Notes: generated from the letters alone by a model not told the origin. A stretch of 64,000 nt of DNA from Desulfurococcaceae archaeon (GCA_038888155.1 JAWAJB010000002.1:32001-96000); one strand, 5' to 3'; positions 21,663 through 52,992 are shown, numbered from the stretch's first letter. Translations and numbers: made by a program.

Positions 21663-22301
21663 ATGAGTAAATTAGGAGTACTTAGAAGGCACACATTTAA
21701 TCCCCTCGGCCAGGGAGACCTGCTAGCTGCTCTTATACTCATAGGCGTTACCATTGTAGTTGGCATAGGCTTCTTGAGCTTAGTTTACCCCAGCGTTTCT
21801 GGATTAGTTGGGCAGAACGATCTAAGGACATTGCTGTATAACGAGCAAAGCGTACTTGTTGTATATAAAGAATACGAGAACTCCACTCATACGTGTATAG
21901 GAATTATTAGGCTGGAGCCTGAGAAAACTAGGTACTCATTAGCCCTCATTGCAGACGAGAGAATAGACGTCTTAGCTCGAGATATAAATGCCATTAGCTT
22001 TCCTCTCTCTCAATCATCTACCCCAGAGCCCAGCGGAGTAAGGACTATAACTGCTGACAGAGCATACCGTATTATTAGCGGGGAACACTGTCCGTGCTTC
22101 AAGGGCTTAAGCTACTTAAAGGTGGTTTACTTGCCCCAAGATGTTGCTGATAACTACTTGTCGAGGGGAATACCTGCCTTGACTTGTCTGTCTAAGGACA
22201 TCATTAGACAGTACGGCATCGATGTCACGCTCTACGTGTTTGTACAAGTAAATACGGATTTTTACGAGGTTGGAGAGGTGAACTTCAGTGTTGAGGAGTA
22301 G
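21663..22301 (+). CDS. Type IV pilin-like protein (minor)
   Basis: Basic leader, then LG/QGDLLAALILIGVTIVVGIG, a class III signal-like hydrophobic helix; pilus locus context. Confidence 0.65.
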   Translation: MSKLGVLRRHTFNPLGQGDLLAALILIGVTIVVGIGFLSLVYPSVSGLVGQNDLRTLLYNEQSVLVVYKEYENSTHTCIGIIRLEPEKTRYSLALIADERIDVLARDINAISFPLSQSSTPEPSGVRTITADRAYRIISGEHCPCFKGLSYLKVVYLPQDVADNYLSRGIPALTCLSKDIIRQYGIDVTLYVFVQVNTDFYEVGEVNFSVEE

Positions 22302-23481
22302 GAGAAGAATTAGAGCTCAAGCTGAGATTATAGGTGGAGTAATTGTAATAACGGCACTAATAATATCTATGGGCTTAGTGCTTACGAGCTTGGCTCGCTT
22401 ATCATCTACATCGGTTACGGGGATCTCTAAAAGAGCGCTATTCGAATCAGAGAAGTCCTTTGAGACAATCAACGTCGTGTATGAGGATAATACCTGTTAT
22501 GTGCAGAACGCCATAGGCTCATCAGTCAAGTTCGTGAGGATATGGTCTAACTCTACTCCAATAGACTTATTGGGCAACGGCTTCAACTTAATGCTACAGC
22601 CGGGCGAGAAGAGAAGCTTAGATGAACTCAAATCTCTTCTAGGCGTCGAGAGAATAGATCACGTAGTTACATCTAGGGGAAACGTTTTCCCCTTAGAATC
22701 CCTCTGCGTTGAGAGGAGACAACAACAAATATCATATTACTACTACTATTACTACTACGAGCAAACAGGGACTCCGTTTGGTAGCGAGAATATCTTAAAC
22801 AGCACGAAGGTATCTCGTGGATTAGAGAGCAGGTATATTTACGTAAACATCTCCTCGGGCTCAACCGTAACTCCCTATCCTGTTGTTTACAACTTCACAG
22901 GGAAATGGTACTGTAGTAGCCAAACTGATAGAGGAGTAATTAGTACACTAGTAATACGCGATAAAAATAACAACCTAATAGGCTCAGATGCCGACTATAC
23001 TACGATAAATGAGCTAATAATAATCAATGCCAATAATTGTAACAGCATAACTAGCCCTGCATTTGAATGGGGCTATAAAAACTTTGATGGAACGGTTACA
23101 TTCGTGTTCAAAAACCTTGTGAATGTAACGCCTAACGTTGACACAATAGCGTTGTACTTTAAGGTACTGGTTTTAGGTGCTGCAACAGGAGGAGTCTCAC
23201 AACAGCTGAGCACAATTACCTCTGCAACAATATACAATACAACGGTGTCTATATCCACGCCTGTCACTGCGACTACTGCCGGTGCAAGGGAGAACCTCGC
23301 CGTTATATTTGGACAGGCTATATTTCCAGTAAAGGCGTTTGGACTTCAGCTTCCAACTGGAGTTTATGATCTGAGGATAGAGTTAGGGTTGAAAGCTCAA
23401 AGCATTGACATCACTGGTGTACGGCTAGAGTACATAGCACTCGTTGGCGCCGATTTCGCAGGACCGTGGATTGGAGACTAA
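22288..23481 (+). CDS. Large minor pilin / adhesin-like protein
   Basis: RRRIRA/QAEIIGGVIVI class III signal; pilin domain ending VTSRGNVF; Tyr8 tract; beta-rich C-terminal domain with several N-x-S/T sequons. Confidence 0.72.
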   Translation: MLRSRRRIRAQAEIIGGVIVITALIISMGLVLTSLARLSSTSVTGISKRALFESEKSFETINVVYEDNTCYVQNAIGSSVKFVRIWSNSTPIDLLGNGFNLMLQPGEKRSLDELKSLLGVERIDHVVTSRGNVFPLESLCVERRQQQISYYYYYYYYEQTGTPFGSENILNSTKVSRGLESRYIYVNISSGSTVTPYPVVYNFTGKWYCSSQTDRGVISTLVIRDKNNNLIGSDADYTTINELIIINANNCNSITSPAFEWGYKNFDGTVTFVFKNLVNVTPNVDTIALYFKVLVLGAATGGVSQQLSTITSATIYNTTVSISTPVTATTAGARENLAVIFGQAIFPVKAFGLQLPTGVYDLRIELGLKAQSIDITGVRLEYIALVGADFAGPWIGD

Positions 23482-23495
23482 TAGTATTTTTGCTT

Positions 23496-24551
23496 CTATT
23501 TTTTCCCAAAGATCCTTGTGAATATTCCTCTGGATTTCGGCTTAAGAGCAAGTATAACCCAATTCCACTTAGTATCTGACTCTATCTGGACAAGAGGAAG
23601 ATATAAATTCGATTGATCAAAGCCCATCGATCCTAGAAGGGGGGATAGTGCTTTTGCCCCAGTTGTTGATAACTTCCACGAATCGACAACAGACAATTTA
23701 TCCCGGCTAAGTAAGTATACCCCTTCATTAGAGGCCACAGCTATGTTTTCACTTAGCGGTGAATCTCTGCCTTCCGATGCTAGGATTTTTGTTCCTGATG
23801 GCTTATCAACGGACTGAATTAATTTGCCTTTAGAGTCGAGCTTGGCTACTCTGTACCCGTCAACGGCGTAAATAAATCCATCGAGATCAACAGCTATCCC
23901 AGTTATTGTCCCTTTTACACTCGGTTTTATAGTATCAAGGAGTTTGAGGTTCTCGTCAAAGAGTTGTATATACCACTCTATCGAAGATCTTGTTCTTGTA
24001 AATCCGCCCGCGACAATGTATTTGTTTCCGCTACTGTAAGCTAAAGCGTAAGCCCCTGACTCCAAGATATCTGTCTCAAATTCAGCTCCATTAATTTTCG
24101 ACAGGTTTTCTGAATTGAGCTTAACGAAGCTAGCGCTTGTGCGAACTTCTGGTCCAAAAGACGTTCCTGCAATGTATATGTGTTTATCCACAAATAAACA
24201 TGAGAATGGCATTAAATAAGGATTTTCAAAGTCAGCTCTTTTAACAACTTGGAGATCCTTGTTAAAGGCAATTGCACTCCAAAATCCCTCTGTTGCGCCA
24301 AAAGCATATATGTAGTTCCCAGAGCTCCGACAAGTAAAGAGAGATGCAAAGTGATGTCCTTGATCATCAGCCCAAGAAGCCACTCTATCCCCATTTCTCG
24401 TATTAAAGGCTTCAGCCCTGTACCTCTTTATCCCTAGGCCTAAGGACTCGTCAAAGCCCACAGCGTAAACTCTATCCCCCGAGACGCATACGCTGTAAAC
24501 CCCATCTCTGTATTTGCTTATGTTGAGCTCTTTACGCCACGACTGCTCCAA
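23496..24551 (-). CDS. Predicted beta-propeller protein, no signal peptide, C-terminal amphipathic helix
   Basis: Repeated ~45-aa blades (RVYAVG, YIYAFG, HIYIAG, YIVAGG, FIYAVD); ends SRGIFTRIFGKK. Confidence 0.6.
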   Translation of the reverse strand: MEQSWRKELNISKYRDGVYSVCVSGDRVYAVGFDESLGLGIKRYRAEAFNTRNGDRVASWADDQGHHFASLFTCRSSGNYIYAFGATEGFWSAIAFNKDLQVVKRADFENPYLMPFSCLFVDKHIYIAGTSFGPEVRTSASFVKLNSENLSKINGAEFETDILESGAYALAYSSGNKYIVAGGFTRTRSSIEWYIQLFDENLKLLDTIKPSVKGTITGIAVDLDGFIYAVDGYRVAKLDSKGKLIQSVDKPSGTKILASEGRDSPLSENIAVASNEGVYLLSRDKLSVVDSWKLSTTGAKALSPLLGSMGFDQSNLYLPLVQIESDTKWNWVILALKPKSRGIFTRIFGKK

Positions 24552-24604
24552 ACCTCTCCACCACTACAAGTAAAATACATTTAAATTTTTGTTAAGCGCT
24601 CTTT

Positions 24605-25795
24605 TTATTTTATTATGGTTGCGCTGTAGGGGATCACTCCTAGAGCAGTTGCAACAAAGAGGACCACTTGGATAGCAGAGAAAAAGAAGGCTACATATTT
24701 GAATTTGTATGTGAACGCCCTGAATAACGCTATGCAAGCGTTTAAGTAGAGAAATGGCAGGACGTTAACGTAGTACCAATCCAGGGGTCCGGCTAAGACG
24801 TTAATTAGCGATAGCCAAGATAGCGCAACAACAGCGCTTAGCTTTTGATCACTAGCTCTCGTTAAGGCTAGGTATGTCGTGTACAACAAGCTTGGGATGA
24901 ACAAATACCAAAGAAACGAGCCCAGCCCAATCCCCACAACAACGAGGACTTTAGATGCAGGTGTAAAGGCTTGGTCCAGAATCTCAAATGAACCGTCAAC
25001 ACTAGTAATTACTGCATTCAACTCCCCAGCATACCTCCACAGCTCTACCCTGGTCAACAGCTTTAGGAGACCGTTCAAAGCTATAGGGAGCGAGAAGCCG
25101 TGTCTCCATGACATATACTTGTACATATCGATATGATGATTTATAATGGCATCAAGACCTAAAGAGAAATCAGCTGAATAAGTAGAAAAGTAAACTGCAA
25201 GCGCTATAAGCAGGTAATTTAAAGAGCCTCTATAACCTTTATCCCGGTAAGCAAGATAAACTGCCCCAAGGAGAACTGACAGCGCGCTTGCCTTTGATGC
25301 TAAACCGAGCCCCATAAATACCGCAGATAGGTAGCTCTTTCCTTTAAGGAGCAAGTATATGCCAAACAGAGAGAGGGATATCGCTATTGGGTCTAATAGG
25401 AGAAACCTAAAAGTATTAAAATACAGGGTGTCAAAAATTAGGAGAAAGGCTGGGAAGAAACAAACTTTTCCGTAGCCTAGTAAACCACAAATGCCATATA
25501 CGAAAAAAGACGAGGCAACACATGTAGCTATGTAAAGGAACCTTGAGAGAGTGATGATCGTGAAGATGCCAATTACATATTTAGCAAAGGGGGGGTGCTC
25601 AAAATTACACAAGAGTGGGGCCACTCCATTAACGTATTTTAAACCGCAGTCAATGTAAACGCGCTCATCGAGGTAGCTGGGTAGGGGGGGATTACTAGCG
25701 TTGATAATCACAAATGTGATGCAAAAAGATAAAAAAAGAATAATACTCTTTATAGATTTACGGGCACTAACGAGCTTGAACAGTTGTTGAAACAA
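24605..25795 (-). CDS. GT-C fold, PMT/GT39-like (dolichyl-phosphate-sugar protein glycosyltransferase-like) membrane protein
   Basis: TM1 followed by YLDERVY...NFEHPPFAKY; FLLLDP, GLGLASK; many TMs. The likely TTG start at 25795 overlaps the pilin gene end (track start 25843). Confidence 0.75.
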   Translation of the reverse strand: MFQQLFKLVSARKSIKSIILFLSFCITFVIINASNPPLPSYLDERVYIDCGLKYVNGVAPLLCNFEHPPFAKYVIGIFTIITLSRFLYIATCVASSFFVYGICGLLGYGKVCFFPAFLLIFDTLYFNTFRFLLLDPIAISLSLFGIYLLLKGKSYLSAVFMGLGLASKASALSVLLGAVYLAYRDKGYRGSLNYLLIALAVYFSTYSADFSLGLDAIINHHIDMYKYMSWRHGFSLPIALNGLLKLLTRVELWRYAGELNAVITSVDGSFEILDQAFTPASKVLVVVGIGLGSFLWYLFIPSLLYTTYLALTRASDQKLSAVVALSWLSLINVLAGPLDWYYVNVLPFLYLNACIALFRAFTYKFKYVAFFFSAIQVVLFVATALGVIPYSATIIK

Positions 25796-26177
25796 CGTTT
25801 CCTGCCCTTGTGTAGACTTTGATAAAGTAGTTCGTACCTGCACTGTAACCTGTTGAGGTGAGAGTTGCTGTGATTGTTGTTTCTTGTCCAGCTGGTATTG
25901 TCGTCGTATCAGTATATGTTTCTATTCCCACAATTTCAATCTTATAAATGACAGAAGTTGCCGATCCTTCATTCTTTATGTGAAGTTCAAGCGTAGGATT
26001 TTCTCCCGCTATAATGGAGCTGTCTGGATATATCCTAAGGCTCTCAGTTGCACCAACTGTTCCCCACCACCCCATTATCCAGCCCACTACTCCTATCGCA
26101 ATTACTAGCGTTACTGCCACAAGGATTACTACTGCTATTATCGGCTCAATACCCTTCATCTTACCTTCAGCGTTCAA
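25767..26177 (-). CDS. Major archaeal type IV pilin (likely start MKG at 26159)
   Basis: MKG/IEPIIAVVILVAVTLVIAIGVVGW is a canonical class III signal; Ig-like C-domain (IKNEGS ... IKVYT..GN). Confidence 0.9.
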   Translation of the reverse strand: MNAEGKMKGIEPIIAVVILVAVTLVIAIGVVGWIMGWWGTVGATESLRIYPDSSIIAGENPTLELHIKNEGSATSVIYKIEIVGIETYTDTTTIPAGQETTITATLTSTGYSAGTNYFIKVYTRAGNVVSTTVQAR

Positions 26178-26299
26178 AATACTTTACCACCATAATACAA
26201 TTATGTTCAACATTATTTTTAAACCCTTCGGTTAGAGATCGACATATTCCTTGTAATTTTTTACTCCTTTATCAGTCATACCTTTTTTTAATTTCAAAT

Positions 26300-26713
26300 T
26301 TACGCTTTAATTACTCTCTTAACAACGGGGTACAATGTGCCAGATTTAAGGTATATTTTCAAGGAGTAAGTAACCCCTTGCTCGTACTCTTCGCGCAGTT
26401 TTATTGGAGGCAATTCCTTTATCTCCCCCGGTCTCACGACTAATGACGGGCTTATATCAACGGTCTCCACTCCCTCTACTTCTACTTTATATATCTCTGC
26501 GCTTACTTCTCCCTCATTTACAGCCGTTAATCTCAGGAACCAGGCATTGTCGGCACTACTGAAATAAATCTCCACTTCAAGCACCTTGAGAACTTCAGAT
26601 CTCGAGGTCATTGAGTTATAAGTTGTTATAATCCACGCTGCGCCTGCCGAGGCCAGTGTTATCGCAACGGCAACCAATATGATTATAGAGAAAAGCCTGT
26701 TCACCTTACACAC
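26300..26713 (-). CDS. Pilin-like protein, paralogous to the major pilin
   Basis: IIILVAVAITLA, NEG...IYKVEV.GVET and Y..KIY...G shared with 25767-26177. No clear K/R-G cleavage site. Confidence 0.78.
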   Translation of the reverse strand: MCKVNRLFSIIILVAVAITLASAGAAWIITTYNSMTSRSEVLKVLEVEIYFSSADNAWFLRLTAVNEGEVSAEIYKVEVEGVETVDISPSLVVRPGEIKELPPIKLREEYEQGVTYSLKIYLKSGTLYPVVKRVIKA

Positions 26714-28550
26714 CTATGTACATAAAAGTAGCTGTTATTGTGCCAACTGTAACTAGCGTGAGAACAATTGCGTGGAAGAAGCCTGCAGCTATAGTTGTCT
26801 GCGATGCCTTCCCAGCTATTAGCCCCATAATGTAAGAGTTTATTAAGCTGCCAATGGCTAAGGCAAAGACGAGCGGAGTTACCGCTGTTAGAGGTATTCG
26901 GGCTAGCGAGAGGAGCATGTAGAGTATTACCATGGGCATAGATGCAAGGAGAGTAGCCCCTAAGTATGGCATTATCGCTTGAGCTCTCATCCTTCTTCGC
27001 GTCTCTTCCTCTAGCTCGCTCAACACCTGCGTGAACCTGGCGAGAGTGTCTATAACCTCAGGAGCCCCGCCCCCCACTACTATTGAGTCAGCTAAGAACC
27101 TAAACGACGCTACTACGAACCACTCTTTAATTCCGCGGAGTGCTTTCTTGAGCGCTTCCTCAAGGCTCAGCCCTATTGATAGGGCAGCTGCAGCCCTCTC
27201 GACAACTGGGGTTAGAGTTCTGTAGTTCCTCGATGAGGCGAGGACTATGCACCTCTCTGGGCTCAACCCAGTTTTCCTAGTCTCGCTAATATCCCTTAGG
27301 AAATCTGCCGCTGCTCCAATTAAGCCTTTTCGCCTTTTTACCAAGGATCGGTACTTAAGCGCAGGCGGTATTGAGGCAGTTACGAGCCCCGCAGAAATTG
27401 AGTACACAAGCGATTTAACCTCGCTTATACCCATCCTACCTTGAAGTGCGTTAACACTGCCAGTTACAATTAGCGCAAGCATGAACACGGCTACAGATAT
27501 AGGTAGCCAAGTGGCCATCGTAATATAGGCTTCCCAGTAGCCTACTGGCGTCCTAGGTTGGTTCAAGTGAATTGCAAACGCTATTATTAACCCCAGGGTA
27601 GGCAAAACAATGAAGTTGTACAAAGATGGAAGAGTTACGTCAATGTTTAGCGATGCTAGCTCGCCTGGAGTCCTCGTGGCCTGAGCTGCTGTTATCGCAG
27701 CTGACACCGCAAAGAATACGAATAAAGTTATCGATACTATAACTCCAAATATAGTGTAAACTTCGAGAAAGGACATTAGCCTACCAATTATACTCCTGAT
27801 CTCAGCAGTTCTGTACTCGAACAGCTCCCTTGTCCTTATCTCGAGGTAGTGGACAACGTCCCCTCCGCTTCTGAGGGTCGTAGTGTAGCCCAGCATTATG
27901 TCCCTGAATCTCGAGCTCGGGTGGGTCGACGCAACAACCTCTAGAGCTGTTATGGGGTCATCCCCCATCATTTTAATCCTTGTGAGGATCCTCCGCGCCT
28001 CTGTCCTAATGGCCTTGAAGACCTTGAGCTGAGCGGCTCTCTCAACCACTTTCTCAAGGCTGTAGCCGCCCCTAACCATAGTTGCTACGTACGCCATAAA
28101 GAAAGGCAGTTCGTTCTCAGTCTCTATTTTTCGCGAAGAGGCTGCTACGTATGGGCGCATGAGCCTCAAAGTGAAAACCATGATAGGTATAGTTGCAGCA
28201 GCTGCTATCCCTACTATGATCCACATTAGGTCTAGCGGAATAATTAAGTAAGTTAGGGTAAATCCAGCCACAGATAGTAGTGCGGCTACTACAATCATAG
28301 CTATTGTTTCGGCTCCGTATTTAACGGGGTGAACATTTAAGCCAGCCCTGGCGAATAGCCTGTCTAGCTCGAACATACTCGACAATCTTTTACCAAGCGG
28401 CTCGAAAAAAGCCAGCGAGAAAGCTGTAAAAGCATCTCTTGAAGATATCTCCGGCTCAACCTTGGCCGGAGCTTTTACCCCTTCTCTTTGTTGTTCCCCT
28501 TTTCTCTTCTTTTCTGAAAGCTTCTTCTTCGATCCGCTAAATCTCCCCAT
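26706..28550 (-). CDS. Type IV pilus membrane platform (TadC/T2SSF/ArlJ family, two domains)
   Basis: ENELPFFMAY...G.S and DFLRDISE....GLSPE repeats; multi-TM; directly downstream of the ATPase. Confidence 0.9.
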   Translation of the reverse strand: MGRFSGSKKKLSEKKRKGEQQREGVKAPAKVEPEISSRDAFTAFSLAFFEPLGKRLSSMFELDRLFARAGLNVHPVKYGAETIAMIVVAALLSVAGFTLTYLIIPLDLMWIIVGIAAAATIPIMVFTLRLMRPYVAASSRKIETENELPFFMAYVATMVRGGYSLEKVVERAAQLKVFKAIRTEARRILTRIKMMGDDPITALEVVASTHPSSRFRDIMLGYTTTLRSGGDVVHYLEIRTRELFEYRTAEIRSIIGRLMSFLEVYTIFGVIVSITLFVFFAVSAAITAAQATRTPGELASLNIDVTLPSLYNFIVLPTLGLIIAFAIHLNQPRTPVGYWEAYITMATWLPISVAVFMLALIVTGSVNALQGRMGISEVKSLVYSISAGLVTASIPPALKYRSLVKRRKGLIGAAADFLRDISETRKTGLSPERCIVLASSRNYRTLTPVVERAAAALSIGLSLEEALKKALRGIKEWFVVASFRFLADSIVVGGGAPEVIDTLARFTQVLSELEEETRRRMRAQAIMPYLGATLLASMPMVILYMLLSLARIPLTAVTPLVFALAIGSLINSYIMGLIAGKASQTTIAAGFFHAIVLTLVTVGTITATFMYIGV

Positions 28551-28551
28551 C

Positions 28552-30189
28552 CTACACAGCCTCTATTTTCCTCAGAACGCTAAGGGGATCTGTGTAGTAT
28601 GAGTAGACGTACATAGATACAGATTTATAGTCGCTAAGCCTCTTGCTGGCTAGCCACTGGAGGACTCTCTTGCGCCTCTCAATTTCCTCTAATAGGCTGT
28701 CCTCTCCAAGCCCAGTCAATTCCTTAATTTTCTTGAGAACTATGCTACTGCTTAGGTCCAGGTGGAAAACATCTTTAGTGGGATCCCATCGACCTACGTC
28801 TACGTAGTCCTCGTAGTCTCTTACCTCCCATATGTTTGTAACTCTTCTTCCAGGCCTTATCCTGCCCTTTTCGTCTCTTATCTGCACTCTTCTTATAACT
28901 AAGGCTATGTTCACGAGGGGGATATAGGATGGGGGGATATTCATGGGGGGTGAAGTAAGCCTCTTAACGGCGGCATCAATGCTTTCCGCGTGCAGAGTTG
29001 TTATGCCGCTGTGGCCAGTAGCAATAGCCTGAAACAGCACGTAGGCCTCTTCTCCTCTGACCTCGCCCACGACTATTACATCGGGTCTGTACCTCAAGGC
29101 TAGCTTGACTAAGTGGAATAAGGATATCTCGCCCACACCGCTACCAACATATGAAGGCCTTGACACTAGTTGAACCCAGTTTTCATGTGTCAACCTAAGC
29201 TCGGGTGTATCCTCAATAGTTACAAGCTTATACGTAGGCCTAAGTAGAGTAGCCATAGCGTTTAAAGTGGTAGTTTTCCCCGCCCCAGTCACGCCGAGAA
29301 CAAGAGTAGTTAACTTGTAGTCCATGGCTAGCCAGAAGTAAGCCGCTATCTCAGGCGATATGGTGTTGAACAATATTAGGTCCACTACAGTTAGCGGGGA
29401 TTCGCTAAATTTCCTTATTGTGAAGGTGGAGCCTGAAGTAGAGATCTCCTTTTTGAACGTTGCCGCCAACCTGTGGCCTCCAGGCAATATTGTATCTAGA
29501 ACGGGGTATGCTACAGATATGTGTTTACCGGCCATATGCGCTAGCTTGAAGATATACTCATCTAATTCCTCCTCGGAGTTAAATTCTATATTTGTTGGAA
29601 CAGATTCGTACTTCCTGTGCCAGACGTACACTGGCTTCTTGGGTCCATTGCACGATATATCCTCAATGTACCTGTCCCTGAAAACGGGATCTAAATTGCT
29701 GAAGCCAACTATTTCCCTTTCGATGTAATACATTATCTTGCTCCACGAGAGGCCTGGAGTCCTTGTGAACCTTATTTGAAATTCCCTCATGATCCTCCTA
29801 GAGGCCTTTTTAATTTCATTTGTAGCGTCAATGTCCAAGCTACTTATCGGTTTTAGCTCCCATACCAAGTGTTCGCGGATCTCCTTGAATATTTTCTCTT
29901 CTTCGGGAGTGAGCGAAATTTCCTGCACTTCATAGATGATCCTACCGCTGGGGTCTTCAACCAAGTTAACGTATGCGAATGGCTCGTATACGGGATAGCT
30001 CTCAATAACTCGGTAGCCAGGGTTAATGCTGTAAAGCACGTGAGTGAACCTTCTCTCTTTGGGGGCTTTCTCGATAACCTCGCTGACTAGCTCGCCCTGA
30101 GAATCTTTCTGCTCTTTTGCTGGTTTGCTCCTCTTGAAGAGCCTACTAAACAGGCCAGCTTTGCTAAGATCTTTACCCAAGATACTCAT
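28552..30189 (-). CDS. Type IV pilus assembly ATPase (VirB11/ArlI/TadA family)
   Basis: IEDISC, GVTGAGKTT, TIEDTPEL, RYRPDVIVVGEVRGEEA and TGHSGITTLHA motifs. Confidence 0.95.
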   Translation of the reverse strand: MSILGKDLSKAGLFSRLFKRSKPAKEQKDSQGELVSEVIEKAPKERRFTHVLYSINPGYRVIESYPVYEPFAYVNLVEDPSGRIIYEVQEISLTPEEEKIFKEIREHLVWELKPISSLDIDATNEIKKASRRIMREFQIRFTRTPGLSWSKIMYYIEREIVGFSNLDPVFRDRYIEDISCNGPKKPVYVWHRKYESVPTNIEFNSEEELDEYIFKLAHMAGKHISVAYPVLDTILPGGHRLAATFKKEISTSGSTFTIRKFSESPLTVVDLILFNTISPEIAAYFWLAMDYKLTTLVLGVTGAGKTTTLNAMATLLRPTYKLVTIEDTPELRLTHENWVQLVSRPSYVGSGVGEISLFHLVKLALRYRPDVIVVGEVRGEEAYVLFQAIATGHSGITTLHAESIDAAVKRLTSPPMNIPPSYIPLVNIALVIRRVQIRDEKGRIRPGRRVTNIWEVRDYEDYVDVGRWDPTKDVFHLDLSSSIVLKKIKELTGLGEDSLLEEIERRKRVLQWLASKRLSDYKSVSMYVYSYYTDPLSVLRKIEAV

Positions 30190-30393: not shown

Positions 30394-33069
30394 ATGCACT
30401 TTAATAAGAAACTGCGCGTTTGCGTCTCCCTTCTCTTAGTTGCAACAGTTATAATGGCGCTGGGACTGTCACAGGGGATAGCTTTCGCAGAATCCATGGG
30501 GCCAAAGGATATTGTGTATGGTTTCAGAGTTGATCTTTCCAAGATTGGGGTATTGCCTAAGTACGTATACTTGCTAGGCGAGAGCAGGGTTATGATCGTT
30601 GGATCGTTCGAGGGAGTAAACGGAGTTGGAGTCCTCAACATTTCTGACCCACACGCTGACCCAAAGCTTGAGGAGCTCTACCCTATTACGGGCCTTCCAA
30701 CTAGAGTAGCCACGGATGGTTATCCTACTACAAGAATAGCTGTAGGAAGCGACAAAGGCGAAGTACTTCTCTTCAAAGTTAATGAAGGGAGGATACTAAA
30801 GCACCTATACACTGTACTGGGGGCTGACTTTTACGTGGATAAATTGTCCCTAGCTAGGGATGCAACTGGAAACACAAAGATCATAGCGCTTGTGGCTGAA
30901 GGCGGAAGTAGAGGTTATCCTTGTATGAATTGCTATGTCTACGTCTTAGATGAAGAAGCTGATGGTTTGCTTCGAATTGGACCAAGGGTGGGTAACGTCA
31001 CGCCGACTTGTCCTGGGCTAGAGGACGTGCAGGTACTTGATGTTGTGCCTCTAGCAGTCTACGGAACAGGTAGCATACACTACGACGCCGCTAACGTAGC
31101 AATAATGTATATCCCTCAGATAATTCCGCTTGTCTTTGACGTAACATATATAGAGGAGGAGACAGGGGAGGCTAAAGGAATCCCTGGAGCTCTAGTAGGG
31201 GTGTCCCTGCTCTACAACAAGACAGGCGCTAGGGTAGTATATGGCGTAAATGCTGATAAGAGAGGCATAGCCCGAGTACCCATTCCCGCCGAAAGGGATA
31301 ATATAATAATTGTAAACTTAACTATTGCTGACATCTCAGGCACAGTGCGCTGGCACTACACTTACGTGTACAACTCGACAGCATTTAAGGAGATCCCCGC
31401 AGAGATTTACCTCCCTGCGGCAGTTCTCCCAAGTAAAAACGTTGACACAAGACCCGCCACGAAGGTTTACGGCGTGCCCCCCTTCCTTGCCTCGATAGTT
31501 GACTTCATTGACATTACAAAGGCTCCGTTTAGGTGCACTATGAGGACGCAAGTTGCTCTGTCGTTGAAACCTTCAGTTAATGATTTAACGCTAATGCGGG
31601 GCTCTACAGATGCAAGGATTAAAATAATGTACAATGATCCAGACGAAGGCATTCTTAACACTATTGTTGTCCTAATTACCCCGCCAGGAATCAGCCAGGT
31701 CTCGAGAGTAACTGACTACGTAGGGGGCAATGCTAGAATAGCGGTAGCTGGTACATACAGCGATGGTAGCTACATTATTGCCGGTCTATCTGACGGCAGA
31801 ATAAGGCTATACACATCTCAAGGCCAAAGCTATAGGCTTAAGCACATCTACGTAATGGGCTCGCCCCTAATTAACCTAGTGACTATACCGAACATTGAGA
31901 GGAATACATACGTAGCTATTTCATCTGGTGGCGTTGAAGTTATCAAGGTGGAGCCGTATCCCCTACCAATATACAGAAAATACCTATCTCTGTACCTCAC
32001 ATTGGGTGAATATATTAGTGGAGATGTATTAGCGGATTTATCAACTATAGCTTTGTTTAACTCAAATAGCTTAGTAGTAGTTAAAAACAGCGACAAGGCT
32101 GTGAGAGAAGACAAGGTGTTAACATTAGATGAAATAATATCCAAGGACATTGAAGTAGTAGTAAATACACCTGGTAAAGAAGAGTTGAGAGGAAGGGAAA
32201 TAACCCTTTCCTATCCGTGGGGCTTCACGAAATATGTTATTACTGGAAACAAATTCACTTTAAATAACATCCTGCCCGGCATTACTTATACTCTACATAT
32301 ACCATCGCCTGCGCCCTACATATACGACTGCGCAATGTCTTTCATACTACGGGAGAACAAGCTAGAAGTGCTCGAGTACTACAATTCAACTGTAAAAGTA
32401 GATCCTACGGGCTATAGGCTAACAATCAACATGTCCTATATAGCGTATTCAGTGATGCTGACAATAATGGACAAAATATCAGAGTCTAGGCTAGCCGGTC
32501 CTATCAACATATATGCCGACGGCAAAATTATAGCGGAGAACACTCGAAGCAACGAACATTCATTACAACTTGTTTACGGCTTCCACAACATTACGGTAGC
32601 CCCGGCAAAAGGCTTTGAGAATACGTATCAAGCATCAACTTTGTTAATTAACGTAGCGTCGGATACTTCTGTCGTTGTAACTTTAAATAGGAAAATGCAC
32701 AGCTTAATGCTAACAGTAGTAGAACAAGGCCAATCCATCAGCAATGTAGCTGTGTACATTTACAGCTTTGAGACTGGTAAGCTAGTCACCGTTCTTTCGA
32801 CAGACGCCGATGGAGTCGTAAGGACAACCATTCCGTATGGTGTCTACAGGATAGTATTTAGCCACGATAAATACAACGAAGAGGTGGTCGTGCTAGCAGT
32901 GGATAAAAGCGTGAGCGATACAATTTCGCTAACTCCTACCACGTACACTTTGATGTGGAGATATATCCCAATAGTCGGAGGCCTTATTGCCGTTGGTGTT
33001 GGCATATACATTGTCTTAAAGATAAGGGTCATCATAGCTAGGAGAATGCTTAAGGAGGAGATATTCTGA
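30394..33069 (+). CDS. Large cell-surface protein: signal peptide, propeller-like region, carboxypeptidase-regulatory/PEGA-like Ig repeats, C-terminal TM anchor
   Basis: N-terminal signal peptide; AVGSDKG and AGLSDGRI blades; TDADG...PYGVY.I repeat; C-terminal hydrophobic helix with basic tail. Confidence 0.7.
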   Translation: MHFNKKLRVCVSLLLVATVIMALGLSQGIAFAESMGPKDIVYGFRVDLSKIGVLPKYVYLLGESRVMIVGSFEGVNGVGVLNISDPHADPKLEELYPITGLPTRVATDGYPTTRIAVGSDKGEVLLFKVNEGRILKHLYTVLGADFYVDKLSLARDATGNTKIIALVAEGGSRGYPCMNCYVYVLDEEADGLLRIGPRVGNVTPTCPGLEDVQVLDVVPLAVYGTGSIHYDAANVAIMYIPQIIPLVFDVTYIEEETGEAKGIPGALVGVSLLYNKTGARVVYGVNADKRGIARVPIPAERDNIIIVNLTIADISGTVRWHYTYVYNSTAFKEIPAEIYLPAAVLPSKNVDTRPATKVYGVPPFLASIVDFIDITKAPFRCTMRTQVALSLKPSVNDLTLMRGSTDARIKIMYNDPDEGILNTIVVLITPPGISQVSRVTDYVGGNARIAVAGTYSDGSYIIAGLSDGRIRLYTSQGQSYRLKHIYVMGSPLINLVTIPNIERNTYVAISSGGVEVIKVEPYPLPIYRKYLSLYLTLGEYISGDVLADLSTIALFNSNSLVVVKNSDKAVREDKVLTLDEIISKDIEVVVNTPGKEELRGREITLSYPWGFTKYVITGNKFTLNNILPGITYTLHIPSPAPYIYDCAMSFILRENKLEVLEYYNSTVKVDPTGYRLTINMSYIAYSVMLTIMDKISESRLAGPINIYADGKIIAENTRSNEHSLQLVYGFHNITVAPAKGFENTYQASTLLINVASDTSVVVTLNRKMHSLMLTVVEQGQSISNVAVYIYSFETGKLVTVLSTDADGVVRTTIPYGVYRIVFSHDKYNEEVVVLAVDKSVSDTISLTPTTYTLMWRYIPIVGGLIAVGVGIYIVLKIRVIIARRMLKEEIF

Positions 33070-38288: not shown

Positions 38289-39590
38289 ATGGGGTGTTAT
38301 AGCGTGTCGCAACAGGCGAAGAGTAGCCGCATTGAGGGTTTTTACAAGCTTCCACTAGAGGAAAGGCTGAAAATTGTAGCTGAATGGGCTGGGTTAACGC
38401 GGGATGAAGTTGATACCTTAGTAAAATTTGGGAGTTTACCGCGCGAAATAGGCGAGAGAATGATTGAAAATGTAGTGGGAAGTATGGCCTATCCTTTTGC
38501 GGTCGCAGTAAATTTCCTTATTAATGGAAAAGATTACCTCGTTCCTATGGTTATAGAGGAGACAAGCGTAGTAGCCGCAGCAAGCAACGCCGCAAGAATG
38601 CTCAGGCACGGCAGGGGCATATACGCCGAGGCAGGTCCACAGGAGATGATCGGCCAAGTACACTTGGTCAAGGTTAACGCGCCATACGCAAAAGTATCCC
38701 GTTTATTGGAGCAGAAAAAGGAAATACTTGATTACGCTACGCAGCAAGATCCCGTTTTAGTCAAATTAGGCGGCGGTCCAAGAGACCTCGAAATAAGGGT
38801 TGTTGAGACTAAGGGGGGGCCAGTTATAGTTGTTCACCTCATAGTAGACGTGAGAGACGCTATGGGGGCAAACACCGTTAACACAATGGTTGAGGCCATT
38901 GCACCGCTACTTGAGAAGATTACAGGGGGAGAGGCAAGGCTCAGGATTATATCAAATTACGCGACCAGGCGTCTAGTTAAAGCTTGGGCGAGAACGCCAG
39001 CTGAAAACGTTGGGGGAATGAATATAGCCAAGAGAATAGAGGAAGCATCTATACTCGCTGAAGCCGACCCGTATAGAGCTGTTACCCACAACAAGGGCAT
39101 TATGAACGGTATTATAGCCGTATCGCTAGCCACAGCCCAGGATCATAGGGCAATAGAGGCAGGCGCCCACGCGTATGCGTGTAGAACCGGTATATATAGG
39201 CCTTTAACTACTTGGGAAGTCGACGAAGAGGGATTCCTAAACGGATACTTAGAGTTACCATTGCAGATAGGTATTGTCGGAGGGGCAACGAGAGTTCACC
39301 CTGTAGCTAAAATCGCCTTAAAGATCCTGGGAGTTACAAGCGCAAAGGAACTAGCAGAAGTAATGGGAGCCGTTGGCTTAGCTCAAAACCTCGCTGCAGT
39401 AAGGGCGCTTGTCACCGAGGGAATTCAGCGTGGCCACATGAGGTTACATGCCAAGAACCTTGCTATCATGGCAGGGGCAAGCGGAGACCTCGTGGACAAG
39501 GTAGCTGAGAGAATGATTAGAGATGGAAGGATAAGATTTGACTACGCTAAGGAGTTACTGGAGAGAGCTCACAGAGGCGAGTCAATTTAA
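38289..39590 (+). CDS. mvaA: HMG-CoA reductase, class II
   Basis: MIENVVG, PMVIEETSVVAA, DAMGAN, THNKGIMNG, QNLAA and GIQRGHM.LH motifs. Confidence 0.95.
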   Translation: MGCYSVSQQAKSSRIEGFYKLPLEERLKIVAEWAGLTRDEVDTLVKFGSLPREIGERMIENVVGSMAYPFAVAVNFLINGKDYLVPMVIEETSVVAAASNAARMLRHGRGIYAEAGPQEMIGQVHLVKVNAPYAKVSRLLEQKKEILDYATQQDPVLVKLGGGPRDLEIRVVETKGGPVIVVHLIVDVRDAMGANTVNTMVEAIAPLLEKITGGEARLRIISNYATRRLVKAWARTPAENVGGMNIAKRIEEASILAEADPYRAVTHNKGIMNGIIAVSLATAQDHRAIEAGAHAYACRTGIYRPLTTWEVDEEGFLNGYLELPLQIGIVGGATRVHPVAKIALKILGVTSAKELAEVMGAVGLAQNLAAVRALVTEGIQRGHMRLHAKNLAIMAGASGDLVDKVAERMIRDGRIRFDYAKELLERAHRGESI

Positions 39591-39634: not shown

Positions 39635-40648
39635 TCAAGTCGCAATTGTAATGGCTAAGGCTATTGTGCAAACAATTACCTGAAGAATGTTGATCACATT
39701 CACAACGTCTTTTTCATAGCACCTGCTTTTTATGGTTATTGACAGCTTTATAGCCCAGTGCGTTAAGCTATAGGACTTGCCGTAAGGGGGTAGCAAACTA
39801 CCATCTATTTGGGCTATACCGAAATTTTCTTTATATACCTTATTCAGAAGTCCCCGGACAAACAACAGTAACTCAACAAAGTACAGCGTAAACGTGTATA
39901 TGGCGAACTTCTCGAAGTTCCAGTATATGGCCAGTGAAGCGTAGAATGCGCCAATGCCATATGTGAATGCGTTGCCCGGGAAAACCTTAGCGGGATATTT
40001 GTTGTAGCGTAAGTAAAATATCAAAATTGAAGCCATAGTGGGAAGTATTATGTAGATAATGTCTGTAAACCCCTTTAACACAGACAATAGTGTAGCATAA
40101 AATAGAATGATCAACCCTTGGCGAGCCTCTAAGCCGTTGTAGCCGGCTATCATGTTAAATGCGTTACTTGCCCCCAGAACACCTACGGGCACAACTAAAG
40201 CTGAATACAATACTCCAAGGTCCAATACACCAAGCAATGGCAGCTCTACCACACTGTACCCTGCTTTGACAGCCATTAATGGGAGAGATATCGGGATAGT
40301 GAATAAGATCCTCTTAGCTGGGGAAATGCCTTTTTTCCAACCCAGGAAGTCATCGAAGTAACCTATGAGTCCAGCCAAGATAAGCGTGAGGGCTATTGAT
40401 AACTGCGGTATAGCATCAGACGCTCTGTCTAAGTAGTTATCTATGGCTATATAGAGGAGTATTCCAAAAGTTGACGCCAATATAACCCAAAGCCCCCCAG
40501 CTTCGGCTGCCGTGTAGTTTCCAGGCTTGTTCATATCTCTACCTACTAGCCCCATTTTAGGAGCTATCTTAGTCCACCAATCTAGTAAGAGAGTAGACAC
40601 TACTAAGCTGGATATTAACGGAAAAGCTACTTTGACAACATAACCTAT
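39635..40648 (-). CDS. aglH: UDP-GlcNAc:dolichol-phosphate GlcNAc-1-P transferase (MraY/GPT family, AglH-like)
   Basis: GRDMNK, AEAGG, GYFDD, NAFNMIAGYNGLE and NKYPAKVFPGN motifs. The frame extends upstream of the tracked GTG (40600) to ATA at 40648, which completes TM1. Confidence 0.85.
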   Translation of the reverse strand: MGYVVKVAFPLISSLVVSTLLLDWWTKIAPKMGLVGRDMNKPGNYTAAEAGGLWVILASTFGILLYIAIDNYLDRASDAIPQLSIALTLILAGLIGYFDDFLGWKKGISPAKRILFTIPISLPLMAVKAGYSVVELPLLGVLDLGVLYSALVVPVGVLGASNAFNMIAGYNGLEARQGLIILFYATLLSVLKGFTDIIYIILPTMASILIFYLRYNKYPAKVFPGNAFTYGIGAFYASLAIYWNFEKFAIYTFTLYFVELLLFVRGLLNKVYKENFGIAQIDGSLLPPYGKSYSLTHWAIKLSITIKSRCYEKDVVNVINILQVIVCTIALAITIAT

Positions 40649-45900: not shown

Positions 45901-46359
45901 GTGCAATGTAAGTTGGGAATTTCCTATCCATATCTTGCAATACTATCAACCATAGCTTTTATTGTTGTTGTTACTAGTGTAACATTTCTCTACTTATATA
46001 TTATAGATCAGGCAAACAAAACACCAGTGCTTGGAGTCTACGCTGAGGCCTACTTAGATTCTCAGGATCATATAAATTTAGTTATCACAATAAGGCATGA
46101 GCGCGGTAGAGCTGTAGAGTTAAAGAAGGTAGTGTTGAATAGCGAGAACGGGACTTTAACTTTAACCGATTTCAGAGGCAACGAGAACATATCTTTAATT
46201 GGCTGCGCTGACGGGCTTATACCTACTGGAGGGGTGTGTAGACTGAGGTTAATTTTTCATGAAGGGTTCATGGAGAATACTACTTACAAGGGGGTAGTAT
46301 TTCTCACAGAGGGCACATATCCAATTGCCTTTACTCCCGTGAGATGGAATTTATCGTGA
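45901..46359 (+). CDS. Pilin-like protein
   Basis: KLG/ISYPYLAIL hydrophobic helix followed by an Ig-like domain; paralog of 53548-54024 (shared HERG). Confidence 0.7.
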   Translation: MQCKLGISYPYLAILSTIAFIVVVTSVTFLYLYIIDQANKTPVLGVYAEAYLDSQDHINLVITIRHERGRAVELKKVVLNSENGTLTLTDFRGNENISLIGCADGLIPTGGVCRLRLIFHEGFMENTTYKGVVFLTEGTYPIAFTPVRWNLS

Positions 46360-46456
46360 TTATCCTACTTCCTTTATGGTTTTAGCAGCCCACTTTTAGG
46401 TATATAAAGAAAGATAATTTTATGAAACAACATTGTAAATCATTAGAGGTGATGTA

Positions 46457-47134
46457 TTGAATAAATGGAAAACTAGAGTTTTCACTTGTCTGCGATGTGG
46501 TCGTTGTTGTTTCTTTGAAAAAACCGAGGATTGCCCAATAGTATTACCCTATGAGGCCCATTACTTGAAAGCGCTAGCCGAGCACATTGGCGTTGCAGGA
46601 CTTCAGTTTGAAGACATGGGGAATGGGTTTTATAGGTGGACAATCAACAGTTACTGCCCTTTCTACAGTAAAGCAGACAATGTCTGTAGGATAAATGAAG
46701 AAAAGCCACTCGCTTGCAAAATATTTCCGCTTCTTGTAAATACTACAACTTACGAGCTACTGGTCTCCTCGGCGTGTTCTTGGATTAAGGAGAACAAATG
46801 CCGACTTGCCGAATTCGCTAGAAACACGATGGGAACATTTCCCCTAGAGCTCAAGGCAGTAAGAGAGCTACTCTCCATAGTATTCGGGGCAAAGAATGGA
46901 GATGTAATATCAGCAATATTCACAGCCAAATCCACTGCTGATGCAATCAATATACTGGCAGACAAGTGCAAAGTCTTAAAGCTGAGAGAAAGCAACTACG
47001 TTAAGGGACTAGCCTTAATTATATTATCATGCTGCACTACTAAAAATATAGCAGATATACTGCAGTCCCTAGGCGAAAATTTAAAACCGCTTTACATAGG
47101 AGATCTACGCATAGGAAATATTGCCTCACAATAG
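46457..47134 (+). CDS. YkgJ-family CxxCxxCC cysteine-cluster protein with C-terminal extension
   Basis: FTCLRCGRCC, CPF and CRI...KPLACKIFP motifs. Confidence 0.88.
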   Translation: MNKWKTRVFTCLRCGRCCFFEKTEDCPIVLPYEAHYLKALAEHIGVAGLQFEDMGNGFYRWTINSYCPFYSKADNVCRINEEKPLACKIFPLLVNTTTYELLVSSACSWIKENKCRLAEFARNTMGTFPLELKAVRELLSIVFGAKNGDVISAIFTAKSTADAINILADKCKVLKLRESNYVKGLALIILSCCTTKNIADILQSLGENLKPLYIGDLRIGNIASQ

Positions 47135-47238
47135 GGCTACAGATGCGAAAGGCCTTTTAGCATTCTAAGCCCCAAATTCAATAAAAGCACTTGGCTTAAT
47201 AACGAGGCAACGTTTGTATCTGTGAGCTCGATGAACGC

Positions 47239-47260
47239 TATATAACCTTATATAACCTTA
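47239..47260 (+). promoter_or_regulatory. Tandem 10-nt direct repeat in the promoter region of the second pilus ATPase
   Basis: TATAACCTTA repeated twice exactly (47241-47260), about 50 nt upstream of the start; function inferred. Confidence 0.4.
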
Positions 47261-47309
47261 ATAAAATCCACATCGACTATCTATTTTTAGGAGAGATAGG
47301 GTAGGTACT

Positions 47310-48758
47310 TTGTCTGTGAAAATTGACATTAAGCTGCGTATCTTGGAGAAGCCGGGGAGAATAGATAATTGCATTGATCAGTACACCATTCCCCGTGCAG
47401 GACCTGCACTCTATCAAGTTTGCATAGCCGATAATATCTACATTGTGTATGATCACATCCTAACCGATTCTAAATACGTAGAGGATATATTGAAATTAGA
47501 GGAAGAGCTCTACGACACTATTGTCGGTGAGACCCCCCTCGCTGAGAAAATTAGCAAGATAAATGATCCTAGGTTGAGACATATCGTCGAGCGACAATTC
47601 ACTGGATACGGCGTACTTGAACCGTTCCTTATGGATCCCGATGTGGTCAATGTACATGTTATGTCAAATAAACCAATACAGATCATACATAGGGTTTACG
47701 ACAGGCTACAGACCAGTATAGTTCCGACTATTGAGGAAGTCGAAGAACTGGCAATGAGGCTTGCTTCATCTGCTGGGAAGCCCCTCTCCGAAGCCCTTCC
47801 TCTGGTTAGCTTCATCGAGCCAAGGTACGAGGCAAGAGTTACAGTTGTCTACAGATCAGATGTTACAATGAGGCGCAACATAACAGTAGATGTTAGAAAA
47901 TTGCCCGAGAACCCATGGACTCTTCTTAAGCTCATTAATCTCGGCTCTTTGAGTATTGAGGAGGCAGCCTTTCTCTGGTTGATGGTGAAGTACAGGGTTC
48001 CAATAGTAATAGTAGGGGAACTATTGACCGGCAAGACAACTCTAGCAACGGCATTACTCGCATTAGTTCCACCGGGTTCAAGGGTCATGACGGCTGAGGA
48101 CACCCCGGAGTTCAGAATTCCTGTGACGTACTGGACCAGGACTACCACGCGTGAATTTGGAGAATATAAAGTGACTTATTTCGATCTATTGAAGACAGGT
48201 GTTAGGCTCTCTTTAGATTACATTATTGTAGGGGAGATAAGGGGAGAGGAGGCCCGCGAGTGGGCGCACTCAATACTCCTTGGACATGGTGCGATTACGA
48301 CATTCCACGCAGAGAGCCCAGAGTCCGCCTTACTGCGCCTAATTTCTCCACCTATATCTGTGGATCCTCAGGTAATCAAGTTTCTTAACGTGTTTGTTAA
48401 GACTAACGTAGTCGAAAGAGAAGTTGGCAAAAGGGTATATAGACACGAAGTTTACATTATAGAAGAGAATAGGTCAATACCACTCTTCATTTATGATCCA
48501 GAGTCCGATAAAATAATCAGGAACCCAGAGATAGAAAATCCAATTATTGCTTTTAAGTTCATTGATAGAATTATTTTAGCCCATAAAGTAACTAGGCCAA
48601 GACTTTATAGGGAGTACAAAGCCATGGAAGAGGTCATTAAGGAGACATACAGAGAGGCACATCAGATAGATCCTACATTAAATATCCCTACATTTAGCGA
48701 GATCCCCAAGATACTCTATGAAAAACTGGAGAGTAAATTGGGGGCATCAGCGCGTTAG
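47310..48758 (+). CDS. Second, divergent type IV pilus/secretion ATPase
   Basis: GYGVLEPF..DP, GELLTGKTT, TAEDTPE, IIVGEIRGEEA and GHG..TTFHA motifs. Confidence 0.9.
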   Translation: MSVKIDIKLRILEKPGRIDNCIDQYTIPRAGPALYQVCIADNIYIVYDHILTDSKYVEDILKLEEELYDTIVGETPLAEKISKINDPRLRHIVERQFTGYGVLEPFLMDPDVVNVHVMSNKPIQIIHRVYDRLQTSIVPTIEEVEELAMRLASSAGKPLSEALPLVSFIEPRYEARVTVVYRSDVTMRRNITVDVRKLPENPWTLLKLINLGSLSIEEAAFLWLMVKYRVPIVIVGELLTGKTTLATALLALVPPGSRVMTAEDTPEFRIPVTYWTRTTTREFGEYKVTYFDLLKTGVRLSLDYIIVGEIRGEEAREWAHSILLGHGAITTFHAESPESALLRLISPPISVDPQVIKFLNVFVKTNVVEREVGKRVYRHEVYIIEENRSIPLFIYDPESDKIIRNPEIENPIIAFKFIDRIILAHKVTRPRLYREYKAMEEVIKETYREAHQIDPTLNIPTFSEIPKILYEKLESKLGASAR

Positions 48759-49050
48759 TTTAGTCTAAAAACAAAGTCAACCATGATTGAATTCTGGTAC
48801 CGGCTATTATTTATCATGTAGCTTGCGATAAAGCGTAAAACCAACGTTTAGGGTGCAGAGGGTTAATATGCTTACGGATTTATCAAACGAATTGCACTCA
48901 TCCCAGTAATTTCCTTTAAGCATATTTTCAATGTTATGTTTTCTCTTAAAGTAGGTATCACTAGTCTACGTTAATGTATATTTACTCGGTAAAGTAAAAT
49001 TATTAATCGAACCAGTTAACTTTGTTTTAACCTCAGTAATAGGTGTTAAA

Positions 49051-52263: not shown

Positions 52264-52345
52264 ACACCATTGATTAGTTCAAACGATCAAAACTGTCTTT
52301 TAAAATTTTGACAACAGCTTTAATACTTTATATACTTTTATTCTG

Positions 52346-52768
52346 TCACCCCGGTAGGGAGTCTTTGAGGGATTTCTTAATTAAGTCAGCAAAATCGCTG
52401 TCCCGTCCTGTTTTGACAAACTCTAGCAGCTGTTGCACTAGCTCGGGTTTTTTAAAGTACGCTGAAATGGGGCTTAGGAAAACTAGTGTAAATGCGTAAT
52501 CAGCAGACAACATGTCACCACGATAATGAGATAGGATAGTTAGGTATAGCTTGCTAGGAGATACGAGAAGCAAGCTTATGCAATCGGACCTATGCATTAC
52601 GTTACATAACATATTTAAAAAGTTCAGCATGCCCGGTATTTTCTTGGAGAGATATTCGTGCAAATATGTTTTGAGAGGCTCAAAACCATCAATGCTCATG
52701 TATCTCCACGTCTCGTCGAACAATTCTTCGAAAGGCATAAAATTCAAATAGGGAAAACCCATAAGCAA
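52346..52768 (-). CDS. Small alpha-helical protein upstream of KaiC-like gene (possible DUF3227/NitrOD5-like)
   Basis: LL..SP..LY..I...Y.G pattern and co-orientation with the KaiC-like gene; family call tentative. Confidence 0.5.
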   Translation of the reverse strand: MLMGFPYLNFMPFEELFDETWRYMSIDGFEPLKTYLHEYLSKKIPGMLNFLNMLCNVMHRSDCISLLLVSPSKLYLTILSHYRGDMLSADYAFTLVFLSPISAYFKKPELVQQLLEFVKTGRDSDFADLIKKSLKDSLPG

Positions 52769-52992
52769 ACCCGGTCTCTGCTTTAACTACTACTCGATTA
52801 TTCAATTATAAGGGTATAAAAAGTGCCATACTACGATGGATCAAACATATTTTAAATATAATTAAATAGAGACAATCACTTAGTTACACATATACAATTT
52901 TATTAAGAATGAAACTAATTTAGCTACATAAATTTAAGAGTAAATAATATATAAGCAGTTCGCACAATACTATTATATTAAAAGATGAGAGC

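Follow-up and report, generated by a model that had tools for sequence, protein, structure and literature searches.

Background

We analysed a stretch of 64,000 nucleotides (nt) from a hot-spring archaeon of the Desulfurococcaceae (GCA_038888155.1 JAWAJB010000002.1:32001-96000; hereafter the window, with positions counted from its first nucleotide), and describe here a pilus operon on its minus strand (23496-30189) in which the gene for the second of two pilins, pilin 2, is followed by a gene for a 396-residue multi-pass membrane protein, mini-PMT, that resembles glycosyltransferases of the GT-C type. A comparable arrangement is known from bacteria, where tfpW lies directly after pilA and TfpW is classed as a GT-C enzyme. 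Like mini-PMT, TfpW of Pseudomonas aeruginosa group IV is a multi-pass membrane enzyme with an outer-facing loop 1; it modifies type IV pilins, transferring and polymerising D-arabinofuranose, and its C-terminus forms a large periplasmic domain, with a proline-rich motif of the Emb kind also present (10.1101/2020.04.19.049825), whereas the archaeal enzyme has about 390 amino acids (aa), is PMT-like and has no outer domain.

By analogy, we regard TfpW as the nearest counterpart of mini-PMT in arrangement and the PMTs as the nearest in chemistry. PMTs are defined by Asp-Glu (DE) plus an HPP[LF]xK motif in loop 1, and the GT39 PMTs (fungal, animal and actinobacterial Pmt) share these loop-1 elements and the GT-C fold with the window enzyme, which differs from them in having no MIR domain, about half the size of a eukaryotic PMT, a beta hairpin and a clade-specific Cys pair. 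PMTs act broadly, whereas mini-PMT appears dedicated to one substrate gene. AglS of Haloferax volcanii is likewise archaeal and distantly PMT-like, and it uses a dolichyl-phosphate (Dol-P) sugar on the outer face (PMC4973528), as we propose for mini-PMT; AglS, however, extends an N-linked glycan (PMC4973528), whereas the pilin paired with the enzyme here is often free of N-x-S/T sequons (32 of 60 family pilins).

The adhesive pili of Saccharolobus islandicus and S. solfataricus are built from pilins of the same fold class as pilin 2 and show O-linked density on Ser/Thr and none on Asn, with no enzyme known for it (PMC11178852, PMC7347861). Saccharolobus pilins are 37% Ser/Thr and about 1.5% charged (PMC7347861), whereas pilin 2 is 28% Ser/Thr in its globular part and ordinarily charged. 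O-glycosylated crenarchaeal pili are documented, as a preliminary description of the window, made from the sequence alone, had noted, and crenarchaeal threads bear O-linked sugars too. The statement of that description that the transferase is not established also holds, a structural paper of 2024 still calling the O-glycosyltransferase in Sulfolobus 'currently elusive' (PMC11607397). A literature search covering journals open without subscription turned up no paper that connects a pilin of archaea with an adjacent GT-C or PMT gene; a census of type IV pili in archaea published in 2016 (PMC4858521) nowhere uses 'glycosyl' in its main text, and its Table S4 lists pilin-glycosyltransferase adjacency without comment. 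On balance, the evidence presented below favours reading mini-PMT as a minimal PMT-like GT-C enzyme that probably serves as a dedicated O-glycosyltransferase for the pilin encoded just upstream.

Results

A pilin gene and a GT-C gene form a conserved cassette

The cassette of pilin and mini-PMT is real and conserved. In the window it consists of the following two genes:

25767..26177, minus strand: pilin 2, the GT-C-linked pilin (NCBIfam arch_flag_Nterm, 22.4 bits against a cut-off of 20; UpsA, 3.1e-10)
24605..25795 (frame open from 25843), minus strand: mini-PMT, a 396-aa multi-pass GT-C glycosyltransferase, by fold, motifs and relatives

A scan of species-representative genomes with the GT-C enzyme yielded 21 loci, 20 of them archaeal. 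Setting aside a distant actinobacterial match (L021, 26% identity) and three loci that begin at or inside the enzyme gene (L013, L015 and L016) leaves 17 informative loci, and in all 17 an orthologue of pilin 2 (44-67% identity) lies directly upstream of the GT-C gene on the same strand. With the likely starts, the distance between the two genes ranges from -4 to +82 nt (157 nt in L007). The linkage holds in every archaeal locus with upstream DNA. The arrangement, an enzyme gene conserved beside a major pilin gene, is that of the TfpW/TfpO-like pilin-dedicated cassettes.

The preliminary description had placed the start of the GT-C gene inside the last codons of the pilin gene. The frame is indeed open past the pilin stop (TAG at 25769-25767), with a TTG at 25795 (29-nt overlap) and a GTG at 25843 (77-nt overlap), but the start codon is a prediction and the overlap is not conserved: it is 4 nt in L002, most other loci have gaps of 8-82 nt, and it is the tight adjacency that is general. 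The Atlas record of the protein begins at residue 29, a start that would delete most of helix 1 of the structural model described below.

Upstream of the pair, a gene for the polytopic platform protein TadC is found in 12 of the 17 loci and both ATPase and TadC genes in 8 (the ATPase orthologues of these 8 loci are 65-77% identical); L003 and L012 begin at the pilin. In three loci (L002, L010 and L011) housekeeping genes surround the pair, and about 7.4-7.6 kb of DNA on its upstream side contains neither ATPase nor TadC. Because the pair is kept there without nearby assembly genes, the link is to the pilin and not to the machinery, and the pair of pilin 2 and GT-C genes travels as a unit independent of the assembly machinery.

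All archaeal loci belong to a single group of order rank (Ignisphaera, Zestosphaera, Thermosphaera and metagenome-assembled genomes [MAGs] of Desulfurococcaceae/Desulfurococcales), and the count of 17 out of 17 is inflated because these genomes are related. This common origin is what would be expected if the two genes had no functional link and were adjacent through the shared ancestry of closely related genomes, an explanation that we consider highly improbable: the GT-C sequences have diverged to 34-49% identity across loci and the genes are still adjacent, separated by short gaps or overlapping, while their surroundings change completely, from pilus operon to housekeeping genes.

The enzyme is PMT-like in motifs, profile and fold

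The DE and EHPP motifs that the preliminary description had noted after the first membrane helix are present (D43 E44 and E66-P69) and invariant in all 33 sequences of alignment A1, which comprises 33 of the close relatives of the window protein. There are 54 such relatives, at 37-54% identity except for one partial copy at 98%, all from Desulfurococcaceae, Ignisphaera or Zestosphaera-type sources. The residues invariant in A1 are D43 E44, N64, E66 H67 P68 P69, K72 Y73, D122, R130, D135, K168 and H232; among 35 more distant relatives of about 400 aa, D43, N64, E66, H67, P68, P69, K72 and K168 are kept in all 35 and H232 in 34. The PMT pattern of DE plus HPP[LF]xK in loop 1 appears as YLDE...NFEHPPFAKY, and it aligns with the same motif of P0273, a longer protein with PMT and PMT_4TMC regions. 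Two cysteines of outer loop 1, C50 and C63, are invariant in the pilin-linked clade (33/33) and kept in only 6 of the 35 distant relatives.

Searched against Pfam and NCBIfam, the window protein matches no family (in Pfam even at E<=1) and stays below the curated threshold of the PMT family, PF02366. Of its aligned relatives, 21 of 33 match PF02366 at E<=1 (best 4e-08) and 3 match PMT_2; PF16192, the model of the C-terminal four-helix PMT_4TMC region, is absent from the families reported for these relatives. Searching 1.84 billion representatives returned 2267 matches at E<=0.001, 51 of them at E<=1e-30, and the Atlas holds similar PMT/PMT_2 clusters of about 390-440 aa in Bathyarchaeota, Nitrososphaerota and Thermoproteota. 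In hhalign comparisons, each made against a single sequence and therefore a relative indication rather than a phylogeny, the family matched two longer PMT plus PMT_4TMC proteins with probabilities of 99% (E 6e-18, P0273) and 96.5% (E 9.5e-10), the alignment to P0273 extending through the PMT_4TMC region (query 257-364 against 641-750). Against ArnT of Escherichia coli K-12 the probability for A1 was 1.8% (E 0.027), which gives no profile relationship to ArnT/GT83. By these comparisons the family appears to lie much nearer to PMT/PMT_4TMC-type enzymes than to E. coli ArnT. Searched against PDB sequences, the family profile gave no match even at E<=10, and the PMT-type relative P0273 gave none at E<=0.01.

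The AlphaFold 2 (AF2) model of the protein (pLDDT 87.8, pTM 0.87) has a multi-pass fold and, together with the alignment, places the acidic pair D43 E44 in the first long outer loop after helix 1, as in GT-C enzymes. The model also contains a long two-stranded beta hairpin (250-266 and 269-287). Foldseek found eight matches in the PDB at E<=0.001, of which seven are GT-C enzymes (AglB, ArnT and Pmt4) and one is a GPI transamidase subunit (8imx_U), with TMq values of 0.65 for Chaetomium thermophilum Pmt4 and 0.56 for Cupriavidus metallidurans ArnT; OST and PimE matched at weaker E-values. The match to Archaeoglobus fulgidus AglB covers the membrane part only (TMt 0.24), and membership of the AglB/STT3 family (GT66) is not indicated, the window protein having no STT3 match in Pfam and ending after its last membrane helix.

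Set against PMT, PMT_2 and AglB, both fold and profile thus point to a GT-C of the PMT kind, as had been suggested, although the window protein itself falls under the Pfam PMT threshold. On its model and motifs we class it as a GT-C enzyme of the PMT kind and, because of that threshold, label it PMT-like rather than filing it as a member of GT39.

Pilin 2 and its conserved hydroxyl residues

The likely start of pilin 2 is the ATG at 26159, which gives a class III signal (MKG/IEP) and a mature protein of 127 aa; the KG/IEP site is kept in the orthologues. The AF2 model of the mature protein (pLDDT 91.5) consists of a helix (2-32) and a beta sandwich, and its Foldseek matches are archaeal pilins: that of Pyrobaculum arsenaticum (6w8u, TMq 0.77, the best), Sulfolobus acidocaldarius Aap (8q30), S. 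islandicus (6nav, 0.65) and S. solfataricus (6w8x, 0.66). In a comparison of 60 family pilins, Ser or Thr occupies 11 positions in at least 80% of the sequences (T31, T35, S37, S44, S63, T78, T84, T92, T114, S121 and T123), and three of these, T31, T35 and S37, sit just past the membrane helix. In contrast to the others, one orthologue (L009:4662-5174) ends in a tail rich in Gln, Ser and Gly, QQQQQSGSSSGSPSGSS.

Proposed function and its alternatives

In the mechanism that we propose, which takes its catalysis, donor, O-linkage and sites from the behaviour of the family and starts from the fold, motifs, PMT nearness and gene pair described above, the N-terminal hydrophobic helix would anchor the prepilin in the membrane, and the enzyme, lying in the same membrane, would bind it there. 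The first outer loop (Asp-Glu and NFEHPPxxKY) would move a monosaccharide from a dolichyl-phosphate sugar to Ser or Thr of the pilin, on the outer face, either ahead of assembly by the ATPase and TadC or in its course; the likeliest sites would be T31, T35 and S37 just after the helix, or other conserved surface Ser/Thr residues.

Several observations weigh against this reading, some concerning the enzyme and others the pilin or the loci. E44 is replaced by Gln in L020. The enzyme has no large outer domain, and the small GT-Cs PimE, ALG3 and PIG-M act on lipid-linked acceptors. The absence of such a domain is unusual for a protein-directed GT-C and could reflect a membrane-anchored substrate; it fits a lipid acceptor equally well. 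The acceptor might then be something other than a protein, such as a membrane lipid or an envelope polymer near the pilus base, or the main role of the protein might be to accompany the pilin in the membrane as its partner or chaperone, catalysis coming second. In its size and lack of an outer domain mini-PMT resembles its lipid-directed Foldseek matches (PimE, GPI mannosyltransferase I and ALG3/9/12), and PF02366, as described in InterPro, presumably also covers the lipid A-modifying ArnT, which we count on the same side. A strict pairing with one pilin, stand-alone pairs included, is hard to explain for a lipid enzyme, however; the hhalign comparisons set the family near PMT/4TMC proteins and away from ArnT, and the invariance of the catalytic-type residues speaks against a role that is structural only. 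We therefore judge this alternative unlikely.

Co-folding of mini-PMT with the mature pilin gave weak support for contact, with a score of 0.53 (runs 0.58, 0.40 and 0.53) against 0.01 for the best of three controls. Of 157 solved complexes 116 attain the mark, as do 2 of 215 mismatched pairs, but with scores of 0.60 or less it is attained by only 18 of the 157 and by both of the mismatches that pass. Between runs at least 64% of contacts are shared, and the pLDDT of the partner does not fall below 72; the tool gives no interface. The controls may be without a membrane helix, in which case the score would partly reflect generic helix packing, and contact of this kind would be expected of a chaperone equally.

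For the pilin, the preliminary description had pointed to a Ser/Thr-rich, sequon-free globular part. Its count is confirmed (27 Ser/Thr among the 97 residues that follow the N-terminal helix, no N-x-S/T sequon, and NPT as the sole N-x-T), and the excess is real within the window, where the Ser/Thr fraction of mature pilin 2 (0.22) is the highest among 58 proteins (mean 0.122, standard deviation 0.030). The Ser/Thr content of the family is ordinary for archaeal pilins, however. The globular Ser/Thr content is 28% in pilin 2, with a family median of 0.219 and a range of 0.148-0.287 (60 family pilins), close to the roughly 20% of the P. arsenaticum pilin and of archaeal flagellar and adhesion filaments, in which O-glycan density is essentially absent, and far under the roughly 37% of the heavily O-glycosylated Sulfolobus/Saccharolobus pilins (PMC7347861). 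The closest structural match of pilin 2 is, moreover, that same P. arsenaticum pilin, which shows only one N-linked density (PMC7347861). Judged against these two benchmarks, Ser/Thr richness was rejected as proof of O-glycosylation, and the composition of the pilin is suggestive at most. A covariation of Ser/Thr content with the state of the enzyme gene was also considered and set aside as anecdote: globular Ser/Thr is lowest in L014 (0.16) and stands at 0.25 in L009, and the enzyme gene is disrupted in both.

The absence of sequons fares no better as a hallmark of the pilin, and we rejected it: it is neither statistically unusual for pilin 2 (2855 of 10000 shuffles of the globular domain, or 29%, are also sequon-free) nor conserved, 28 of the 60 family pilins and 8 of 18 locus orthologues having one to four sequons. 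Over the family, 36 sequons are observed against 70.0 expected from composition, about half; the sequences are related and the ratio is accordingly given without a p-value. These sequons are relevant to a further alternative, in which the enzyme is an AglS-like extender that works on the outer face and passes a Dol-P-linked sugar to a protein-bound glycan, on the pilin or on sequon-rich neighbours, and not to Ser/Thr. A precedent exists in Haloferax AglS, which is distantly PMT-related and adds mannose to a protein-bound N-glycan (PMC4973528), and the neighbouring proteins of 397 and 891 aa carry 6 and 8 sequons. Sugar on the sequon-free pilins, that of the window included, cannot be N-linked because there is no sequon to bear it, which weighs against such an extender; the pilins of the three stand-alone pairs have 0 (L002), 0 (L011) and 1 (L010) sequons, and the conserved partner of the enzyme is the pilin, the sequon-rich proteins being absent from these same three loci. 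An AglS-like role is in our estimate improbable. Of the original case for a dedicated pilin O-glycosyltransferase, what stands is a GT-C of the PMT kind tied specifically to the second pilin, while the arguments from sequons and composition were overstated.

The enzyme also seems dispensable for having pilus genes. Two of the 17 loci, both from Ignisphaera MAGs, have a disrupted copy of its gene: in one (L009:5230-6372) it needs two frame changes, and in the other (L014:7640-9113) it is without the N-terminal part bearing the DE and HPP motifs and has an insertion. These may be MAG assembly errors; in the orthologous locus of the cultured Ignisphaera aggregans DSM 17230, as listed in Table S4 of PMC4858521, a gene-free stretch of about 0.9 kb follows the second pilin.

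The pilus operon and its surroundings

The remaining genes of the operon and its immediate flanks are as follows:

28552..30189, minus strand: pilus assembly ATPase, FlaI/TadA-type, 545 aa (Pfam T2SSE, 5.9e-33)
26706..28550, minus strand: TadC/UpsF-like polytopic platform protein, 614 aa (Pfam T2SSF, 1.7e-18, two stretches)
26300..26713, minus strand: pilin 1, UpsA-like, 137 aa (NCBIfam UpsA, 2.7e-07, under cut-off)
23496..24551, minus strand: SBBP/PQQ-like beta-propeller, 351 aa (Atlas model matches; weak Kelch_6/NHL/SBBP matches in Pfam)
21663..23481, plus strand: two convergent pilin-like genes, 212 aa and 397 aa (class III-like N-termini; 2 and 6 sequons)
30394..33069, plus strand: large surface protein, 891 aa, with a C-terminal membrane anchor, divergent from the ATPase gene (8 sequons)

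Translations and family matches bear out the order first described for the minus strand: ATPase, TadC, pilin, major pilin, GT-C and beta-propeller. The ATPase also matches NCBIfam FlaI (2.7e-111) and BasE (1.7e-85), and the platform protein UpsF (6.5e-30), all three under the curated cut-offs. A FlaI/TadA-type ATPase, a TadC protein and class III signal pilins with an Ig-like head identify the operon as an archaeal type IV pilus system (Aap/Ups/bindosome-like, clade 4). Pilin 1 has the lower Ser/Thr content, 0.11-0.18 over whole translated frames (window copy and orthologues in 10 loci).

The beta-propeller label holds, the Atlas model (pTM 0.87) matching SBBP/PQQ_2 propellers at TM 0.75-0.84, and a propeller orthologue lies directly downstream of the GT-C gene in six loci (L001, L003, L004, L009, L014 and L016). 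The idea that the propeller might partner the enzyme on the outer side was considered and not adopted: its translation contains no signal peptide or membrane segment, and it is present in only these six loci. Fusions of PMT_2 with PQQ-type propellers exist among Bacillota proteins in the Atlas.

Homologues of the 212-aa and 397-aa pilin-like genes lie directly downstream of the GT-C gene, on the same strand, in L006 and L007, and L012, L013 and L015 have an analogous set of four pilin-like genes. The surface protein (with weak bMG3/CarboxypepD_reg matches in Pfam) has a homologue in the same divergent position in eight loci (L004, L006, L008, L009, L014, L018, L019 and L020). Together with the sequon-rich pilin-like genes it may correspond to the 'additional components' of Desulfurococcales clade 4A loci (PMC4858521, section 13).

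A second type IV pilus-like system lies at 45901-54024. It comprises an ATPase (47310-48758; T2SSE, 3.8e-21) and a KaiC-like ATPase, a 602-aa polytopic TadC-like protein (49051-50859) and small pilin-like proteins with class III-like N-termini and sequons (45901-46359, 52993-53430 and 53548-54024), such as NGT and NVS in the second and three sequons in the third. Throughout this region (45901-54024) no GT-C gene adjoins the pilin-like genes. Elsewhere in the window, a gene for HMG-CoA reductase (38289-39590) adjoins one for a family 4 glycosyltransferase (39635-40600; Glycos_transf_4, 2.3e-29), a family that includes starters of dolichol-linked glycans; no Dol-P-sugar synthase was seen within the window.

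Discussion

The cassette may be one case of a wider archaeal habit of placing a GT-C gene beside pilin genes. According to Table S4 of PMC4858521, a pilin gene of Acidianus hospitalis W1 (148590..148994) has a same-strand gene 11 nt further on for a 'predicted mannosyltransferase' with 12 helices, and next comes a gene for a DUF2029 protein; a PMT-like gene stands beside a pilin gene in Desulfurococcus fermentans, with similar cases in Methanobacterium and Methanocella, and in Ignicoccus hospitalis an unannotated 12-helix protein is encoded between two pilin genes. The same table lists no such cassette for Thermosphaera aggregans.

The cassette is a good candidate for an enzyme that adds O-linked sugars to archaeal pili, and its two genes, pilin and enzyme, provide a small and direct test system. 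More tentatively, and with somewhat more doubt than conviction, we suggest that mini-PMT is the first identifiable archaeal protein O-glycosyltransferase, a PMT stripped to about 390 aa that needs no outer domain since the prepilin is anchored alongside it in the membrane. If so, it would reveal which class of enzyme carries out O-glycosylation in archaea, indicate to what extent a PMT can shrink and give a handle on the surface chemistry of the pilus, which has been tied to pilus stability and virus attachment (PMC7347861). Should the wider habit also prove true, similar reasoning could point to the enzymes responsible for the O-glycosylated pili of Sulfolobales.

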